Assembly (NCBI GenBank): GCA_037127815.1
Contig: JBAXXP010000001.1
Coordinates: forward strand, 16,936-80,935
DNA from: a bacterium
Lineage (GTDB): Bacteria > Patescibacteriota > Minisyncoccia > Phycocordibacterales > CAIZLB01
DNA length: 64,000 nucleotides
Direction of reading: 5' to 3'
Part shown: positions 2,806-56,783 of the stretch, piece after piece
Layout: each line of letters begins with the position of its first letter
How positions within the stretch are numbered: position 1 is the stretch's first letter
The notes under the pieces: generated by a model
What the model was told of the DNA's origin: nothing
Database searches by the model: none
What the model saw: the letters and a program-made list of their open reading frames with translations, nothing else
Made by a program: the position numbers and the translations under genes

Positions 2806-3747
2806 TTATTCCAACAAATGTGTTGGCTGATCCTGATGATTCAATTCCTCCACAATCGCTGTCGGCCTCCATGGAGTCCTTAAGTGAATTGCACCGAAGC
2901 TAATTGCAGCGGCTTTGAGAATTAAATTTGCATGTACAACGTCTTGATAGTTCATCACGCTCGGCACAATTACCGGAAGTGATCCTTGTCTGTAGAGCTG
3001 TTCAGCAGCCCTCCAATTAAGTTTTTGTGCTGGCTTCCCAGACACACCACCACCACCTCCACCAACTTTTTTCTCCAATCTCCAAAGAGGTGTTTCCTCA
3101 CCGTCAGGAAAGGCGGTTTTCCAAGGTATACTATTCAGAGCGATTGCTTCCGCAATGCCCTCCAGATCACTGGCGATAGTCAAATAGTCTTGGTCAACTG
3201 AAACCTTCACGATAACAGGGTGCCCAGACACTTCCTTCACAGCCTTAACAGCATCAACGACACTGCCAGCGTCTTGCAAAGCATCTCCAGAATTTGGACA
3301 TGAATAATTCACCTTGATTGCAACAAATGGATATCGGTTGAGCATCTTTGTCATTTCGACAAGCTCTTCCTTTGTTCCAAAAATTGAGGCAATTAGAGGA
3401 AATTTTACAAAATCATGAAATGGTGCAATTTCTTTACACCACCAATCAATTCCCTTGTTAGTCAATCCAATCTTGTTGACAGAGCCTCCACGAATCAAAC
3501 GCATGCAAGTCCAAGGATTCCACCAACGCAGATTTCCCGGACGAGGATGACGAGTCAGAGTTTTGATAACCACGGTAAAAAGCTCGGGTTTAATAATCCC
3601 AAGCCAAACCAATGGCCATTCCCAAAACCATCCTTTCCCATCAAAAGCGAGAGCCCCGCTTGCAACAACATATTTCAACTCATGTCCATTCGATAGTTTA
3701 ATCATCTTATGTATTCCTCCAGTTTGTAGTTTTTGTTCAATTGTCAA
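2806..3747 (-). CDS. pyrD: Dihydroorotate dehydrogenase
   Basis: 313 aa. ASGALAFDGKG, IKVNYSCPN (the DHODH active-site loop) and a GGGGGVSGKP flavin-binding segment. It sits directly next to pyrC. Confidence 0.8.
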   Translation of the reverse strand: MTIEQKLQTGGIHKMIKLSNGHELKYVVASGALAFDGKGWFWEWPLVWLGIIKPELFTVVIKTLTRHPRPGNLRWWNPWTCMRLIRGGSVNKIGLTNKGIDWWCKEIAPFHDFVKFPLIASIFGTKEELVEMTKMLNRYPFVAIKVNYSCPNSGDALQDAGSVVDAVKAVKEVSGHPVIVKVSVDQDYLTIASDLEGIAEAIALNSIPWKTAFPDGEETPLWRLEKKVGGGGGGVSGKPAQKLNWRAAEQLYRQGSLPVIVPSVMNYQDVVHANLILKAAAISFGAIHLRTPWRPTAIVEELNHQDQPTHLLE

Positions 3748-3840
3748 TTGTAAGGCCGTAGGACCGTTACAGGACGATGTCGATTTAATCGACTATACGG
3801 CAATCCTAGACTAAATAAGGCTTAAAAGCAAACCAAAATA

Positions 3841-5055
3841 CTATAAATTATTCTTCCTAATTCTATTCCCTGCAACAAACAAAAGTGTCAAAAAAACTAA
3901 AGCTGAAAATCCTATTCCCGCCCAAGCTATCCAGGGATATTGTTCAGTGAATCTACTTTCACTAGTGTCGCAAGCATCTCCAATTTTATCGCCATCAGTA
4001 TCTCTTTGATCATAATTTGGAACATCCCTACAATTATCTATGGAGTTAATTATTCCGTCTCTGTCATAATCATCACAAACATCCCCTCTTCCATTTTGAT
4101 CAATATCAAGCTGATCTCCATTGGCAACGTTTATACAATTATCTATTACATTAGGAACACCATCTCCGTCAGTATCACTTAGGACAAAAACTGGGTTCTC
4201 CAAAACAGCAGGCATTGAGATTTTCCTTACACCAAGAGACGATGAATAATTGGAGGCCTCTTCATAATTTGCATATATCTTAGGTGCAACTTCAGGATTT
4301 ACATAAATTACATACTCTTTTTTGGGAAGCGCTAAAAAACTTAAGGACTCTCCAGCATATGCATTTAATGTATCATTTAAATGAATCTCTGAAATTCTAA
4401 TAGGTTGAGCGTATTGTAGTTCTAAAATCCATTTGTTTGACAATGTTATTGGAAAGTTAATTTCATTTGAGGTTGGTTTGTAATTGTTTAGCAAGACAAT
4501 TTCTTTGCCATTTACGTATGCCTTCAATGTAACCAATGTAGGTAGTGAGACATACGAATCAAAAGATAAATTTAAAGAGTCAGACTTAATTGCTTTTGAA
4601 TAATTAATTGAAATTGCAGAAATACTTTTACTCTCTTCCTTATTAAGGTAGAAATCCTTCATCGTTTGATAATTATTATCAAACAAATCGTTTAGATTTT
4701 CATTAGTAGAAATATCTATTGCATTTACATTATTAACATTTATTTGATTATCTCTCGTGACCAAACTTGAAATAAATTTACCATCAGTTTTATTGTATAC
4801 ACCAAAAGAGTCACTACTGATTTGATTGATGTCTATGGGAATCTGTAAGAGTGTCGGAACTAATATATTTTGGGCAGGAACTTTCATATAGTTCTTATAC
4901 GCTTTAAATATCACCTCGTTTGTTGATGTGGCGACACTTGTCACAGGTTGCCAATCTTTTACAATCGCATATGCAGGCTTAAAACTTAAAATTAGGACGA
5001 ATGCTATTGCAAGACATGCTGTAACCGATGATTTTATAATTAGTTTTTTATTCAT
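3841..5055 (-). CDS. Secreted/cell-surface protein with C-terminal thrombospondin type-3 (TSP3) Ca-binding repeats and a C-terminal transmembrane anchor
   Basis: N-terminal signal peptide [30 protein letters not shown]. The C-terminal region [70 protein letters not shown] fits the DxDxDGxxDxxDNC TSP3 consensus. A terminal hydrophobic helix follows, ending in a basic tail. Confidence 0.6.
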
Positions 5056-8740: not shown

Positions 8741-8972
8741 ATTATTTAAGACTCTTTCTAAAAAGAAAGAGGTTTGATTTCCATTTATTTATGGAAAACT
8801 GAATTAGTCTTTAGAGATATACGTAAGGCGACTAGAAATCTCTAAAGTTTCGAAAAGTATATAGTTTGTGTGAAATATCCACGCAAAACCCATGAGAGAT
8901 TAACTTACCCCTGTAGTATGTACTATTTTGATGCTTTTGTCAAATGAGCGATTGGGTGCTTATTGAGCAACC

Positions 8973-22040: not shown

Positions 22041-22246
22041 GTTTTTAGACCTGATTAAGCATATTTTCCTAACACGATTCGCATTACTCCATCTACTCCG
22101 TGACCCTTCCCTTTTATTGGTATTTTAGCATAAATTTGGGTTTTCTTTATCTTTCCCTTGGTAATTCGAAACCCCGCCAGATAAACAAAAATTTGACAAG
22201 CCAAAATTATTTGATAAACTAAAAGTACAAATGGGGTATCCCAACC

Positions 22247-22271
22247 GCCCGAGCCTTAAAACCGCTCGGGC
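22247..22271. terminator. Hairpin GCCCGAGC-cttaaaacc-GCTCGGGC straddling the stop codon of the MazF-like gene
   Basis: 8-bp perfect stem. The TAA stop (22256-22258) lies in the loop. The upstream arm on the minus strand encodes the last residues, PERF. Confidence 0.4.
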
Positions 22272-22675
22272 TTAAGGTTTGATTTTATTTTAATCAGATC
22301 TTTTATAGACCTCTGTATCATTGCGAAATCTTTGTCTGACAAATATCCGATATGAGTGTCTAGCCTTTTTGTATCCAAAACCCTAAGTTGAGAGATTATA
22401 ACAGACTGCTCAGTATTTTTCAGTAAGACCTTCACATAATAGATATTGTCTTTATTTTTAGTACTCATTGGTATTCCCCAAAAAATGTTATTATTGAATT
22501 TTTTGAATACCAAAACAGGCCTTCGAAATATATACCCTTTTCCGTTTTCTTCATCCCCAACATTCTCCCCCAGTGCGCACCATCGAACCTCACCTTCTTT
22601 AATATAGATTCCCTTCCTTTCTTTTTTATCCAAATTAATTTTCACATATATCCAATCAATAAATATTTTTAGCAT
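22256..22675 (-). CDS. MazF/PemK-like endoribonuclease-fold protein (toxin-like), solitary, with an N-terminal extension
   Basis: 139 aa. The core VRWCALGENVGDEENGKGYIFRRPVLVFKKFNNNIFWGIPMSTKNKDNIYYVKV fits the MazF/Kid pattern W-x-D/L..G.E..G..RP.lV.......(V/I)P.T(S/T). No antitoxin-like ORF is adjacent. It is a paralog of 56296-56712. Confidence 0.55.
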   Translation of the reverse strand: MLKIFIDWIYVKINLDKKERKGIYIKEGEVRWCALGENVGDEENGKGYIFRRPVLVFKKFNNNIFWGIPMSTKNKDNIYYVKVLLKNTEQSVIISQLRVLDTKRLDTHIGYLSDKDFAMIQRSIKDLIKIKSNLKPERF

Positions 22676-22759
22676 TTAGAAATGTTATCAAAATGCAAGT
22701 GTGATTTTCATTAACAAATTATAAAGAAATTCCAAATTTTTTATAAACATACGTGAAAT

Positions 22760-22835
22760 TGGAGCCAATGGACGGGATCGAACCGTCGGCCTGCACGTTA
22801 CGAATGTGCCGCTCTACCAACTGAGCTACATCGGC
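22760..22835 (-). tRNA. tRNA-Thr (anticodon CGU)
   Basis: Sequence GCCGATGTAGCTCAGTTGGTAGAGCG...TTCGTAA...GGTTCGATCCCGTCCATTGGCTCCA closely resembles E. coli tRNA-Thr(CGU). CCA is encoded. Confidence 0.8.
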
Positions 22836-30033: not shown

Positions 30034-30632
30034 ATTTTCATGAATCCTTCGAAAATAAGCTTTTTTCTGTCCAGATAAAGCTTACTCGTCGTATTATACA
30101 TGATTTTATAAATTTTCAAAGAGTCTCGGGTACTATACTGTAATCTACTATAATTTCCACTTCTAAGGTTAAATAAACTTCCACCGTCCAAACCTAAAGA
30201 ATTAAGCATATTAAATAGATTATTTAAGAACATTTTACTAGCAGAAGTAAAGGCTACAAACATCACGGATGTTGGTTTTTTTCTTGTTTTATTAGTATGC
30301 CCTACCCAGATATTTCCATCCCCATCAAAATACCCTCTAATAAAATCTCCTTCATATTTTTTTGGAATGGTAGGAATATCCATTCTTAATGACTTATTTG
30401 GGGTAAGTCCAAGGAGTACAAGGTCATTAAACATTTCTTTGCTTCCAATTTGGACCCTATATACAGACCCCGTTTCTGATTTTATTTCAGATATTTTATG
30501 TGGTAATTTCATTACTTCAGCAATAGAAATAAGAAGTTCCCTGTCAGCCGTATAGAAAGAGATAAAATGAGTATTTCTTTTAGTTTTAATTATGTTACCA
30601 TCTGCAAATAAAAAACCTAAAATATAAGCCAT
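30024..30632 (-). CDS. Free-standing double-motif LAGLIDADG homing endonuclease
   Basis: 202 aa. Motif 1 LGFLFADGNI and motif 2 IRGYFDGDGNI are spaced about 100 aa apart, typical of monomeric two-domain LAGLIDADG enzymes. The 3' end overlaps the first ~10 nt of tRNA-Asp. Confidence 0.8.
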   Translation of the reverse strand: MAYILGFLFADGNIIKTKRNTHFISFYTADRELLISIAEVMKLPHKISEIKSETGSVYRVQIGSKEMFNDLVLLGLTPNKSLRMDIPTIPKKYEGDFIRGYFDGDGNIWVGHTNKTRKKPTSVMFVAFTSASKMFLNNLFNMLNSLGLDGGSLFNLRSGNYSRLQYSTRDSLKIYKIMYNTTSKLYLDRKKLIFEGFMKMRL

Positions 30633-30740
30633 GTTAGGCGACCATTTTTTGAAAAAGTTGTTGTTGTTAATTTTAAATACTGGAGTGGTATTATTATATA
30701 TTCGAAAAAATTAATGACAATTGCGAACATTAAAAAAGTG

Positions 30741-30814
30741 TGTCGACGGGAGGGATCGAACCTCCGACCTTGGGCTTATGAGTCCCACGCTCTAACCAAC
30801 TGAGCTACGTCGAC
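30741..30814 (-). tRNA. tRNA-Met (anticodon CAU), elongator-type or tRNA-Ile2-type (G1-C72 paired). CCA not encoded
   Basis: GTCGACGTAGCTCAGTTGGTTAGAGCGTGGGACTCATAAGCCCAAGGTCGGAGGTTCGATCCCTCCCGTCGACA. Anticodon loop CTCATAA. Confidence 0.75.
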
Positions 30815-30941
30815 GTACAGACACTATAATACAAAAACACCTAATTTTCAAGCTTTATAGAAGGCTCTATTTTATGCATTTTTTACGATTAATATCTACC
30901 CAGCAAAAAAGCCCCTATTAGGAGCTTTTTTTTTTAAATTG

Positions 30942-31012
30942 TTGCGGAGTCCGGAATTGCACCGGATCTACAAGGTTATGAGCCTCGCGTGCGACTGTAA
31001 CACTCCCCCGCA
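30942..31012 (-). tRNA. Atypical tRNA-like gene with a CAU anticodon loop. The D-loop lacks GG and the T-loop is TGCAATT
   Basis: TGCGGGGGAGTGTTACAGTCGCACGCGAGGCTCATAACCTTGTAGATCCGGTGCAATTCCGGACTCCGCAA folds into a cloverleaf with a 7-bp acceptor stem (U1-A72, one G.U) and anticodon loop CTCATAA. The D and T loops are non-canonical. Confidence 0.4.
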
Positions 31013-31120
31013 ATTTGTATCTATATCAAATATGAATACCTTCGTACTATATAACATATTGTAATAAAAGACAATCCTTTTCAGGTTTTAGTCTAAAATA
31101 CCAAATAGCAATAAGTCAGC

Positions 31121-54427: not shown

Positions 54428-54514
54428 GGAGGATTGGATGAGCGGCTTAAATCAACAGTTTACTAAACTGTCGGCTTGGAAACAGGCCCGTGAGTTCGAA
54501 TCTCACATCCTCCG
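54428..54514 (+). tRNA. Type II (Ser-like, long variable arm, G73) tRNA with apparent anticodon ACU. CCA not encoded
   Basis: GGAGGATTGGATGAGCGGCTTAAATCAACAGTTTACTAAACTGTCGGCTTGGAAACAGGCCCGTGAGTTCGAATCTCACATCCTCCG. The anticodon stem ACAGT/ACTGT gives loop TTACTAA. The loop differs from the tRNA-Ser(GCU) loop TTGCTAA only by G34A. Confidence 0.6.
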
Positions 54515-54657
54515 CAAAATAATGGGCATAGCCCATATATTTTGCGAGAGTGCAGAATAGGTTGCGAAGCGACCGTAATTCTGCCTCCGCAAGTCATATT
54601 ACCCTTAAAATTTGACACCCTCTGTATCTTTGTTAAACTATAGGTACAAATAGACTT

Positions 54658-54782
54658 TTAGTCGCAACCCCAAGCTTTTCCAAGAAGCTTGGGGATTAAA
54701 TTTACAACATTTTCTATAATCTTATTATATTCAGAAGTATTTAGCCTACCCATTCTTAAGCCTAATCTTTTTGCATCATATA
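54658..54782 (-). pseudogene. 3' fragment (~41 codons) of a third MazF/PemK-like paralog
   Basis: The minus-strand frame reads ...LYDAKRLGLRMGRLNTSEYNKIIENVVNLIPKLLGKAWGCD*. This aligns with the C-terminus of 56296-56712 (LYDSRRLGPRIGKLDKIGYNDVIKNIVNFIPKPLVETWGSD*). Similarity stops upstream of LYD and there is no start codon. Confidence 0.5.
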
Positions 54783-55707: not shown

Positions 55708-56241
55708 ATGTATAGTTTAAATATGAAAAAATTGCTTTATACAGAAGCTGGGCCAAATGGAACTGCATACAAAAAAGGAGAATGGGAGAAGTTTGCCATA
55801 CACAATGAAAATGAAATAAAGGGCTTTTTTGGCGAATACAGATTTCTGAGTAATTTCTGGCCAGCAAAAGTATTTCTAGATAATGTAGAGTATTCAAGCG
55901 TAGAACTTGCATATCAGGCGGCAAAATGGAAACCTGAGTCCAGACAATTTTTCTCTACATGTACAGAATTAGATTCAATAGATTTCAATAGACAAAATAT
56001 ACCAGATGGATACCCTACAGCTATATGGGATTCAATAAAACTATCTATAATGGAAGATTTAGTTAAGCAAAAATTTGACCCAAAAATTAATCCTGAGAAT
56101 TATCAAAAACTCCAATCTACAAACAACAAACATCTTGAAGAAATGAATTGGTGGGGTGACATATTTTGGGGAACAACAGAAAATGGAGATGGAGAAAATA
56201 ATCTCGGTAAACTACTAATGGCAGTACGCAAAAATATCTAA
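55708..56241 (+). CDS. NADAR-domain protein (YbiA/DUF1768 family; N-glycosidase / ADP-ribose-processing superfamily)
   Basis: FFGEYRFLSNFWPAKV, YSSVELAYQAAKW, WWGDIFWG and NNLGKLLMAVR match NADAR conserved blocks. The start may be MKKLLY (55723). Confidence 0.7.
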   Translation: MYSLNMKKLLYTEAGPNGTAYKKGEWEKFAIHNENEIKGFFGEYRFLSNFWPAKVFLDNVEYSSVELAYQAAKWKPESRQFFSTCTELDSIDFNRQNIPDGYPTAIWDSIKLSIMEDLVKQKFDPKINPENYQKLQSTNNKHLEEMNWWGDIFWGTTENGDGENNLGKLLMAVRKNI

Positions 56242-56295
56242 CTGTGTATTTGACATCCTTGTTTGATTTGATAGAATTCAAATACAAATCGACGC

Positions 56296-56712
56296 TTAGT
56301 CGCTACCCCAAGTCTCCACCAGAGGCTTGGGGATAAAATTTACTATATTTTTAATAACATCGTTATACCCTATTTTATCCAGCTTTCCAATTCTAGGACC
56401 TAGCCTTCTACTATCATAAAGCCTTATATGAGAAATCATTACTGATCTAGTCACTGATTTTAATTGGACTTTAATATAATACTTATTATCCTTATTTTGA
56501 CTAGTCAAAGGAATACCCAAAAATAAATTTCTATTAAACTTTTTAAACACCAAAACGGGTCGTGAAAAAGTATCGCTTTTCCCGTTCTCTTCATCACCTA
56601 TGTTTACTCCAATTGAACACCAAAAAACATCCCTTTCTTTAATTGAAGGAAATCTTAATCTGACATCTAAACCACTCTTTTTCACAGACCATTTTTCGAA
56701 GTCTTTTTCCAC
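56296..56712 (-). CDS. MazF/PemK-like endoribonuclease-fold protein (toxin-like), solitary; paralog of 22256-22675
   Basis: 138 aa. DVFWCSIGVNIGDEENGKSDTFSRPVLVFKKFNRNLFLGIPLTSQNKDNKYYIKV. The C-terminal codons (IPKPLVETWG) are encoded by the inverted repeat CCCCAAG...CTTGGGG at 56307-56332. No antitoxin-like neighbour. Confidence 0.55.
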   Translation of the reverse strand: MEKDFEKWSVKKSGLDVRLRFPSIKERDVFWCSIGVNIGDEENGKSDTFSRPVLVFKKFNRNLFLGIPLTSQNKDNKYYIKVQLKSVTRSVMISHIRLYDSRRLGPRIGKLDKIGYNDVIKNIVNFIPKPLVETWGSD

Positions 56713-56783
56713 TAATTAATTTTAGCAAAATCACATGAGTTTTTGATAAATAAATTCTAAAGAAAAACGAAACAAAATAATTA

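Follow-up and report, generated by a model that had tools for sequence, protein, structure and literature searches.

MazF/PemK-fold genes of Patescibacteria and other phyla are coupled to a convergent, covarying small-RNA gene, a candidate antitoxin

Several kinds of described toxin–antitoxin (TA) system resemble the genes considered here. In type I systems with a 3'-overlapping RNA (Bacillus subtilis txpA/RatA and bsrG/SR4), a convergent cis-encoded RNA overlaps the 3' end of the gene for the toxin, canonically a hydrophobic peptide of <60 amino acids (aa); SymE/SymR and RalR/RalA are type I systems with non-peptide toxins. Type II MazEF modules (PF02452; B. subtilis EndoA/YdcE, PDB 1NE8 and 4MDX) consist of a MazF-fold toxin and a protein antitoxin, MazE, while in type III systems (ToxIN, CptIN and TenpIN) a Kid/MazF-like endoribonuclease is neutralised by a structured RNA, bound as a mimic of the processed product (PMC3401426, PMC5086642). 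The nearest relative is the pVir0047/CJpv3 pair of Campylobacter jejuni, in which a homologous toxin gene without annotated protein antitoxin is met by a convergent small RNA (sRNA) whose 3' GC-rich hairpin abuts the toxin stop codon. The present analysis concerns a 64,000-nucleotide (nt) stretch of a Patescibacteriota genome (positions 16,936 to 80,935 of contig JBAXXP010000001.1, GenBank assembly GCA_037127815.1; hereafter the window), which carries two full-length MazF/PemK-fold genes, copy 1 and copy 2, and a 3' fragment of a third. A covarying, independently promoted small-RNA gene is physically coupled to these genes and to their relatives, which have no protein antitoxin; the RNA transcripts of the window are predicted from sequence, and the RNA is probably an antitoxin of some kind for the MazF-like toxin.

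The module fails defining features of type II MazEF, of canonical type III and of canonical type I. With type II it has in common the fold, the Pfam family, the catalytic positions and the C-terminal helix, but no gene for a MazE/PemI, AbrB or ribbon-helix-helix protein adjoins the window copies or their relatives, and the family adds both an N-terminal helix of ~22 aa, with invariant K, F, W and K, and the convergent RNA gene. Its likeness to type III extends to a faint match of the window toxin to NCBIfam CptIN (E=0.039) and to tandem RNA doublets at two related loci; however, the toxin is a true PF02452 member rather than ToxN/AbiQ, CptN or TenpN (NCBIfam CptIN 13.8 bits, against a cut-off of 90), and the RNA is a single convergent unit with its own promoter instead of a same-strand upstream repeat array, no type III-style tandem repeats being present near any window copy. 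As in the 3'-overlapping type I pairs, a convergent cis-encoded RNA overlaps the toxin 3' end and has a promoter that is strong relative to that of the toxin; unlike in those pairs, the toxin is a 138-aa MazF fold, the overlap comprises just 0-45 nt of the open reading frame (ORF) and the RNA 5' sequence is conserved across phyla. PADLOC defence-system models gave no match.

Conservation of DNA among the three window copies runs ~55 nt past the toxin stop codon, and at all three the plus strand of the conserved block is a near-consensus sigma-70 promoter (TTGACA-16-TGnTAnAnT). Each promoter is directed into the 3' end of its MazF-like gene, that of small RNA 1 keeping register with its counterparts at the other two copies and at related loci; the nearest plus-strand gene ends upstream of it. 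Transcription from such a promoter would yield a ~50-60-nt RNA starting at the A of ACAAAU, and RNA 1 (+) overlaps the copy 1 ORF (−) by about 43-46 nt (Table 1). The first-pass annotation had described the toxin genes as solitary and without antitoxin genes, a description that no longer fits, each copy including the fragment having a convergent small-RNA gene with a strong promoter. On the RNA strand the units fold better than shuffled sequences (z = -5.3 for RNA 1, -5.5 for RNA 3 and -2.75 for RNA 2), as do the 86-nt windows of the first-pass annotation (z = -3.35, -2.56 and -3.07), and the GC-rich inverted repeats it had placed near the stop codons are real. The hairpin of small RNA 3 also appears on the plus strand in a terminator scan, and small RNA 2 continues into a U-rich tail to ~22291. 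The marginal covariance-model score of RNA 2 (E=0.12) reflects the divergent subgroup to which copy 2 belongs, relatives of which (L017, L028 and L038) are matched by the model. Rfam 15 returned no match at the gathering threshold for the window or for 17 loci, and on 56200-56420, even at E<=10, nothing but noise. One further weak match in the window (8742-8788, minus strand, E~0.1), with an AUAAAU start and a hairpin-2-like stem but without hairpin 1, was set aside as probably an ordinary terminator.

Relatives were fetched as 80 loci from one-genome-per-species contigs of Patescibacteria/Parcubacteria, Saccharibacteria, Rickettsiales, other Alphaproteobacteria, Verrucomicrobiota, Bacteroidota, Chloroflexota, Bdellovibrionota and others; 75 entered the promoter count, 74 the analysis of neighbouring ORFs, and 78 were evaluable for the RNA unit. 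In the 120 nt that follow the stop codon, 34 of the 75 loci have an antisense-strand promoter with a score of 11 or more out of 13, and one locus has such a promoter on the sense strand. The predicted RNA start lies at a constant ~115-135 nt from the KRL motif of the toxin, while the ORF tail after KRL is between 23 and 40 residues long. The predicted transcripts are all built alike, from 5'-ACAAAU, a 4-bp hairpin with a 4-5-nt loop (hairpin 1), a 3-6-nt linker and a GC-rich hairpin of 6-12 bp (hairpin 2), which in Saccharibacteria-type members is followed by a canonical U-tract; the sequence of hairpin 1 differs by clade (GGGUUAUCCC, CGACAUUAGUCG, GGCUUCGGCC and UGGCAUUAGCCA). Alignment of the raw predicted transcripts with MAFFT and RNAalifold recovered no structure, because the length of hairpin 2 varies. 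A covariance model seeded from six sequences of the same geometry and iterated twice matches the expected place, antisense and immediately 3' of the gene, in 56 loci, and in most others the unit is recognisable by eye as a promoter, an NYAAAY start and two hairpins; together, ~75 of the 78 evaluable loci therefore carry the RNA unit.

In a 51-sequence alignment fitted to the model, 97.8% of cells pair and compensatory changes occur in 13 of 13 pairs, with a covariation score of 0.736 against 0.184 for shuffles (none of 500 as high) and <=0.20 for slid-partner controls. With the RNA 5' ends superimposed, -35, -10 and a spacer of 6 nt keep a fixed register, so that the A of ACAAAU is the predicted +1. 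Conservation reaches 96-100% in columns 3-6 (AAAU), and 96% of linkers open with C, while the hairpin-2 columns carry 0.03-1.0 bit. Judged by these columns, the RNA is constrained in sequence at its 5' end and in structure only at its 3' end.

This RNA gene offers an explanation for the unusual ends of the window proteins. In members with short tails the ORF comes to its stop immediately outside hairpin 2, 45-55 nt short of the RNA start, and any overlap would there involve only the 3' untranslated region (UTR) of the toxin. In the subfamily of the window, the ORF of copy 1 and that of the fragment run through hairpin 2 and end in the loop of hairpin 1, and that of copy 2 ends in the loop of hairpin 2. 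The earlier observation that the stop codon lies in or next to the GC-rich hairpin thus holds for copy 2; in copy 1 and the fragment, by contrast, the repeat CCCCAAG..CTTGGGG ends 7 nt before the stop codon, which is held in the loop of a second, 4-bp hairpin (CGAC-UAAGC-GUCG). At locus L086 the stem CCCCAAG/CUUGGGG has become CCCCGAA/UUCGGGG, the protein tail has changed from PK..WG to PE..RG and the stop codon in the hairpin-1 loop is lost; at L087 the ORF passes through the same structure in a different frame. As the RNA structure is kept while the ORF tail changes, and as the tail is modelled at a predicted local distance difference test (pLDDT) value of only ~51, selection appears to act on the RNA and not on the last ~12 residues. 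The hairpin, first read as a feature of the coding sequence, is then better described as the 3' hairpin of the RNA, over which the tail varies by frameshift, stop loss and paired stem substitutions; sequence comparison indicates that the extension of the ORF over it is incidental. In the window subfamily the ORF would have drifted into the RNA gene, which would account for both the stop codon in a hairpin and the PK..WG protein end.

A tblastn search of plasmids and phages located distant members in Campylobacterota only, on plasmids of C. jejuni, C. coli and Helicobacter, on a Nitratiruptor plasmid and in CJIE4 prophages. Among them, CJJ81176_pVir0047 (30634-31038 of pVir, C. jejuni 81-176) is homologous over its full length, the N-terminal F..W..K extension included (hhalign 99.6%, E=1e-23, 124 aligned columns; ~29-35% protein identity). 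Published transcriptome data (Dugar et al. 2013, PMC3656092, Table S5) assign 16164 reads to a minus-strand start at 31119 and 28 to the start of the toxin itself, at 30608; Table S12 of the same study lists a Northern-detected sRNA, CJpv3, of 77 nt at 31119-31043. The start at 31119 matches exactly the promoter predicted from the sequence (GATATAAT-6 nt-G). CJpv3 begins ~80 nt past the toxin stop and ends 5 nt from the stop codon, just after the GC hairpin; it has three hairpins and a 5' GUUUGA where the window RNA has two and ACAAAU, so that sequence and structure do not establish homology of the two RNAs. The Nitratiruptor plasmid homologue is intermediate, with TGnTATAAT-6 nt-AUAAAU followed by two hairpins in a window-like architecture. 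A cjpT/cjrA pair on pVir is said to have been described as a type I TA system by Shen et al. in 2016; CjpT and CjrA we take to be, probably, pVir0047 and CJpv3. The pVir pair is known from one plasmid lineage and is undescribed as a family spanning Patescibacteria, Rickettsiales and others.

The assignment of the proteins to the MazF/PemK fold, already made from the sequence at first pass, is borne out by profiles and models. PF02452 scores 40.3 bits for copy 1 and 48.9 bits for copy 2 (cut-off 23.1), and among ~5.8 billion proteins searched the homologues form >500 clusters of 127-145 aa; nearly all homologues carry a precomputed PF02452 assignment, and those that their sources name are called PemK/MazF toxins. 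A single-sequence search of the PDB gave noise only, a profile being needed; the family profile retrieves B. subtilis MazF/EndoA (E=4e-5), profile positions 23-124 aligning to EndoA 3-109. The AlphaFold model of copy 1 (pLDDT 81.6, predicted template modelling score 0.76) consists of a MazF barrel and a C-terminal helix, with an added N-terminal helix (residues 5-17) and the tail (131-138) as its least confident part, and the top 50 Foldseek matches in the PDB are all MazF (target-normalised TM-scores 0.65-0.81). In a 50-member alignment, R51 of RPVLV, which aligns with the catalytic Arg of B. subtilis MazF, and P68 of the IPLT/S motif are invariant, and the Thr/Ser that follows P68 (IPLTS or IPMST) is conserved; from the profile-PDB alignment we read the latter as the probable equivalent of the MazF catalytic Thr. 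By these retained residues the MazF-fold genes would be catalytically intact, with endoribonuclease activity and toxicity as predictions.

Since the PF02452 domain begins at residue 26, the N-terminal extension that the first-pass annotation had pointed out is real, and it is family-wide: a segment of ~22 aa, in which MEKDFxxWxxxKxxLD is conserved, with K3, F5, W8 and K12 invariant in the 50-member alignment. The same annotation had noted the missing antitoxin ORF, and indeed neither copy 1, which starts 71 nt after mscL, nor copy 2, 84 nt downstream of tRNA-Thr(CGU) at 22760-22835, has the room or an ORF for a MazE-type protein upstream. When all ORFs of 35 aa or more lying no further than 700 nt from the gene at the 74 loci were clustered, there was likewise no conserved neighbour protein upstream or downstream, only shadow ORFs inside the gene. 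These two features, an absent protein antitoxin and a conserved extension, would suit true orphan toxins or toxins restrained by their own N-terminal 25 residues, with promoter and hairpins dismissed as spurious or as ordinary terminators, and on the same side stands the moderate confidence (pLDDT 70-77) at which the N-terminal helix is modelled. Such a reading must, however, pass over a fixed-register promoter and covarying RNA in ~75 of 78 loci as well as an experimentally abundant sRNA at the homologous place in C. jejuni, and as the promoter is directed into the gene the unit is not a terminator combined with the promoter of a neighbouring gene; on this comparative evidence it appears largely refuted and is very improbable.

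How the RNA might act is suggested by where its conservation lies. Each MazF-like gene would be half of a two-gene toxin/RNA-antitoxin module, in which the RNA, present in large excess, would keep the endoribonuclease inactive by binding it directly, in a type III-like manner, its single-stranded 5' ACAAAU docking in the MazF substrate groove. E. coli MazF cuts at ^ACA, on the 5' side of ACA. If the enzyme cut 5' of its recognition sequence, a transcript that begins with that sequence would present no upstream nucleotide and hence no scissile bond, and would behave as an uncleavable mimic of substrate or product; should the toxin cut like E. coli MazF, an RNA beginning with ACA would, speculatively, account for the fixed position of the start. 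The hairpins, and possibly the N-terminal helix with its invariant K3, F5, W8 and K12, would add affinity, and once the labile RNA was no longer made, free toxin would cleave cellular RNA. Direct binding is favoured because a near-invariant single-stranded sequence lies exactly at +1 while hairpin 2 is constrained in structure only, and because the basic and aromatic N-terminal helix is co-conserved with the RNA. It is favoured also because promoter-bearing RNA copies survive without an intact toxin (the window fragment, L014, L047 and L048) or in tandem, as two separately promoted units downstream of a single toxin gene (L006 4377-4505 and L037 4385-4527), as expected of a role in trans or at the protein level, and because at L051 and L068 a sense-strand terminator separates the toxin stop from the RNA core. 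As a mode of action it is plausible, at somewhat under an even chance.

Most of these observations count at the same time against a type I-like cis-antisense RNA, which would pair with the 3' end or 3' UTR of the toxin mRNA and lead to RNase III-type decay or blocked expression, or whose convergent transcription from a strong promoter may interfere with transcription of the toxin. Cis-antisense pairing would work without any conserved sequence, whereas AAAU (+3 to +6) and the linker C reach 96-100% conservation across phyla and the hairpin-2 sequence is free; the toxin has a soluble 138-aa nuclease fold rather than being a small membrane peptide. Nor does the RNA pair with the initiation region of its own toxin beyond chance (cognate -15.0 against non-cognate -14.5 kcal/mol, median rank 24 of 53). 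In favour of the antisense mode, the RNA gene always converges on the toxin 3' end and abuts or overlaps it, and the RNA is perfectly complementary to the toxin mRNA 3' end (~43 nt with copy 1), a pairing that the gene arrangement makes automatic; a terminator scan of the window found no intrinsic terminator for the toxin mRNA ahead of the RNA gene, so that the mRNA should carry the full complement. This antisense explanation is possible, if rather doubtful, and it does not exclude direct binding, the two modes not being mutually exclusive.

Several points weigh against direct binding and against the breadth of the RNA family. The invariably convergent and abutting arrangement is what a cis-antisense system predicts, and CjrA of C. 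jejuni 81-176 is labelled an antisense sRNA and the RNA antitoxin of a type I system (PMC10470494), CJpv3 adjoining the homologous gene. The covariation counts come from a model-fitted alignment, the conservation of ACAAAU is in part overstated because matches were chosen with the model, and by-eye units include the 5' variants GUAAAU, CUAAAC, AUAAAC and ACACAU. The Campylobacter and Helicobacter RNAs have a 5' end other than ACAAAU and an extra hairpin, and model R3 finds nothing significant in the pVir, Helicobacter or CJIE4 loci; with these differences and without a model match, homology of the RNA across the whole superfamily is unproven.

The phyletic spread of the clade, which is abundant in Patescibacteria, Saccharibacteria and Rickettsiales, bears on a further alternative, in which the MazF-fold protein is an RNA-binding or RNA-processing factor with a role other than growth arrest, and the small RNA its substrate, cofactor or regulatory product. 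The co-occurrence of protein and RNA across phyla would fit such a role, as would the conserved N-terminal helix with its basic and aromatic residues and the frequency of the module in those reduced genomes, where classical TA modules are thought to be scarce. Set against this are the retention of the MazF catalytic Arg and Thr/Ser, the excess of the C. jejuni RNA over the toxin transcript (>500-fold), which fits an antidote, and a patchy, multi-copy distribution, with fragments and paralogues in one window and members on plasmids and in prophages, that is typical of selfish TA or defence modules; a function outside TA is accordingly improbable.

As far as searched, three aspects are new: that structured RNAs with a conserved 5' ACAAAU and a fixed promoter form a covarying family, that this family is found together with a MazF clade in many phyla, reduced genomes above all, and that the RNA gene explains the odd C-terminal tails. 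In the literature searched, a convergent structured RNA beside a MazF-family toxin was found described only for C. jejuni. Thousands of genomes annotate such genes as "type II PemK/MazF family toxin" without a partner. If a small RNA that Rfam lacks is that partner, many annotated 'orphan' MazF genes are not orphans, and censuses of TA and defence systems are systematically wrong for the clade, especially in the candidate phyla radiation (CPR)/Patescibacteria and in obligate intracellular alphaproteobacteria. The boldest form of the proposal, to be held with doubt, is that a cross-phylum MazF-fold clade has swapped MazE for a tiny RNA that starts with the recognition sequence and inhibits as an uncleavable substrate or product mimic. 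If true, the module would directly link type II MazEF with type III ToxIN, in evolution as in mechanism, and would be a compact, testable case of a protein antitoxin swapped for an RNA on the same toxin fold; the placement of the recognition sequence at the +1 of the transcript makes the hypothesis of inhibition itself testable. C-terminal tails that are translated RNA hairpins are, besides, a warning for gene callers and for inference based on conservation.

Table 1. Positions of the toxin genes, promoters and predicted small RNAs in the window
Feature	Position	Strand	Description and source
MazF/PemK-fold gene, copy 1	56296..56712	−	138 aa, GTG start; N-terminal helix extension, residues 1-25; last 14 codons overlap the RNA gene; ORF list
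MazF/PemK-fold gene, copy 2	22256..22675	−	139 aa; ORF list
3' fragment of third MazF-like gene	54658..54780	−	last 40 codons and stop; translation, alignment to intact copies
Promoter of small RNA 1	56250..56277	+	TTGACA-16-TAGAAT, upstream TG; 11/12 matches and extended -10; promoter scan
Promoter of small RNA 2	22193..22220	+	TTGACA-16-TAAACT, upstream TG; promoter scan
Promoter of small RNA 3	54612..54639	+	TTGACA-16-TAAACT, upstream TG; intact despite truncated toxin gene; promoter scan
Small RNA 1 (predicted)	56284..56341	+	5'-ACAAAU 56284-56289; hairpin 1 56290-56302, toxin stop codon in loop; linker; hairpin 2 CCCCAAGUCUC..GAGGCUUGGGG 56306-56332, then A/U tail; covariance model E=4e-7 (R2), 3.6e-6 (R3); fold z = -5.33
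Small RNA 2 (predicted), divergent 'GGGUAUCCC' subgroup	22227..22275	+	ACAAAU; hairpin 1 22232-22243; hairpin 2 GCCCGAGC..GCUCGGGC 22247-22271, toxin stop codon in loop; weak model match E=0.12 at the expected place; alignment and fold agree
Small RNA 3 (predicted), kept with toxin fragment	54646..54703	+	ACAAAU; hairpin 1; hairpin 2 54668-54694; then AUUAAAUUU; covariance model E=4.1e-5 (R2), 1.3e-5 (R3); fold z = -5.46
Candidate promoter of toxin copy 2	22718..22747	−	TTTATA-18-TATAAT; promoter scan

Two full-length paralogues and a 3' fragment, as originally annotated, were recovered, and the identity of the paralogues, estimated by eye at ~45%, is 54% over 112 aa by BLASTP (E=3e-38) and 47% in a global alignment. 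The fragment translates without interruption as YDAKRLGLRMGRLNTSEYNKIIENVVNLIPKLLGKAWGCD up to its stop codon; its 5' edge directly follows the terminator of the upstream gene, and it lies (54612-54780 region) 1.5 kb from the intact copy 1. Its promoter and small RNA are intact while the toxin is down to 40 codons, and the RNA may have outlasted its toxin, kept as an orphan antitoxin or because it protects against incoming copies. Among relatives, promoter-bearing RNA copies away from the toxin 3' end (L014 3914-3961, L047 3883-3934 and 8134-8180, L048 3288-3335 and L044 3468-3525) lie upstream of the toxin gene or kilobases off. In the L006 and L037 doublets hairpin 2 of the distal unit overlaps, with its 3' arm, the -35 of the proximal one, and at L012 a second, divergent MazF-like paralogue (3431-3879) directly upstream of the first has a weak RNA model match at 3832-3879.

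Upstream of the toxin genes, copies 1 and 2 share a block of aligned DNA, and the equivalent of the candidate copy 2 promoter before copy 1 is a TAGAAT at ~56754-56759. In most family members a Shine-Dalgarno sequence is not recognisable ahead of the start codon (56713-56760 and 22676-22720 in the window, and related loci), and translation of the toxin may be intrinsically weak or unconventional. The plus-strand gene at 55708-56241, convergent with copy 1 and NADAR/YbiA-like (DUF1768) by eye only, has its stop codon just 9 nt upstream of the -35 of small RNA 1, which makes the region extremely compact. The RNA promoter of the fragment lies ~100 nt from the 3' end of a tRNA-Ser gene (54428-54515), tail to tail, and sites adjacent to tRNA genes could be insertion hot spots for the module. 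This tRNA-Ser and tRNA-Met at 30941-31012 are not reported by the Rfam tRNA model at the gathering threshold, and ARAGORN assigns to the tRNA-Ser, on the plus strand, the unusual anticodon ACU.

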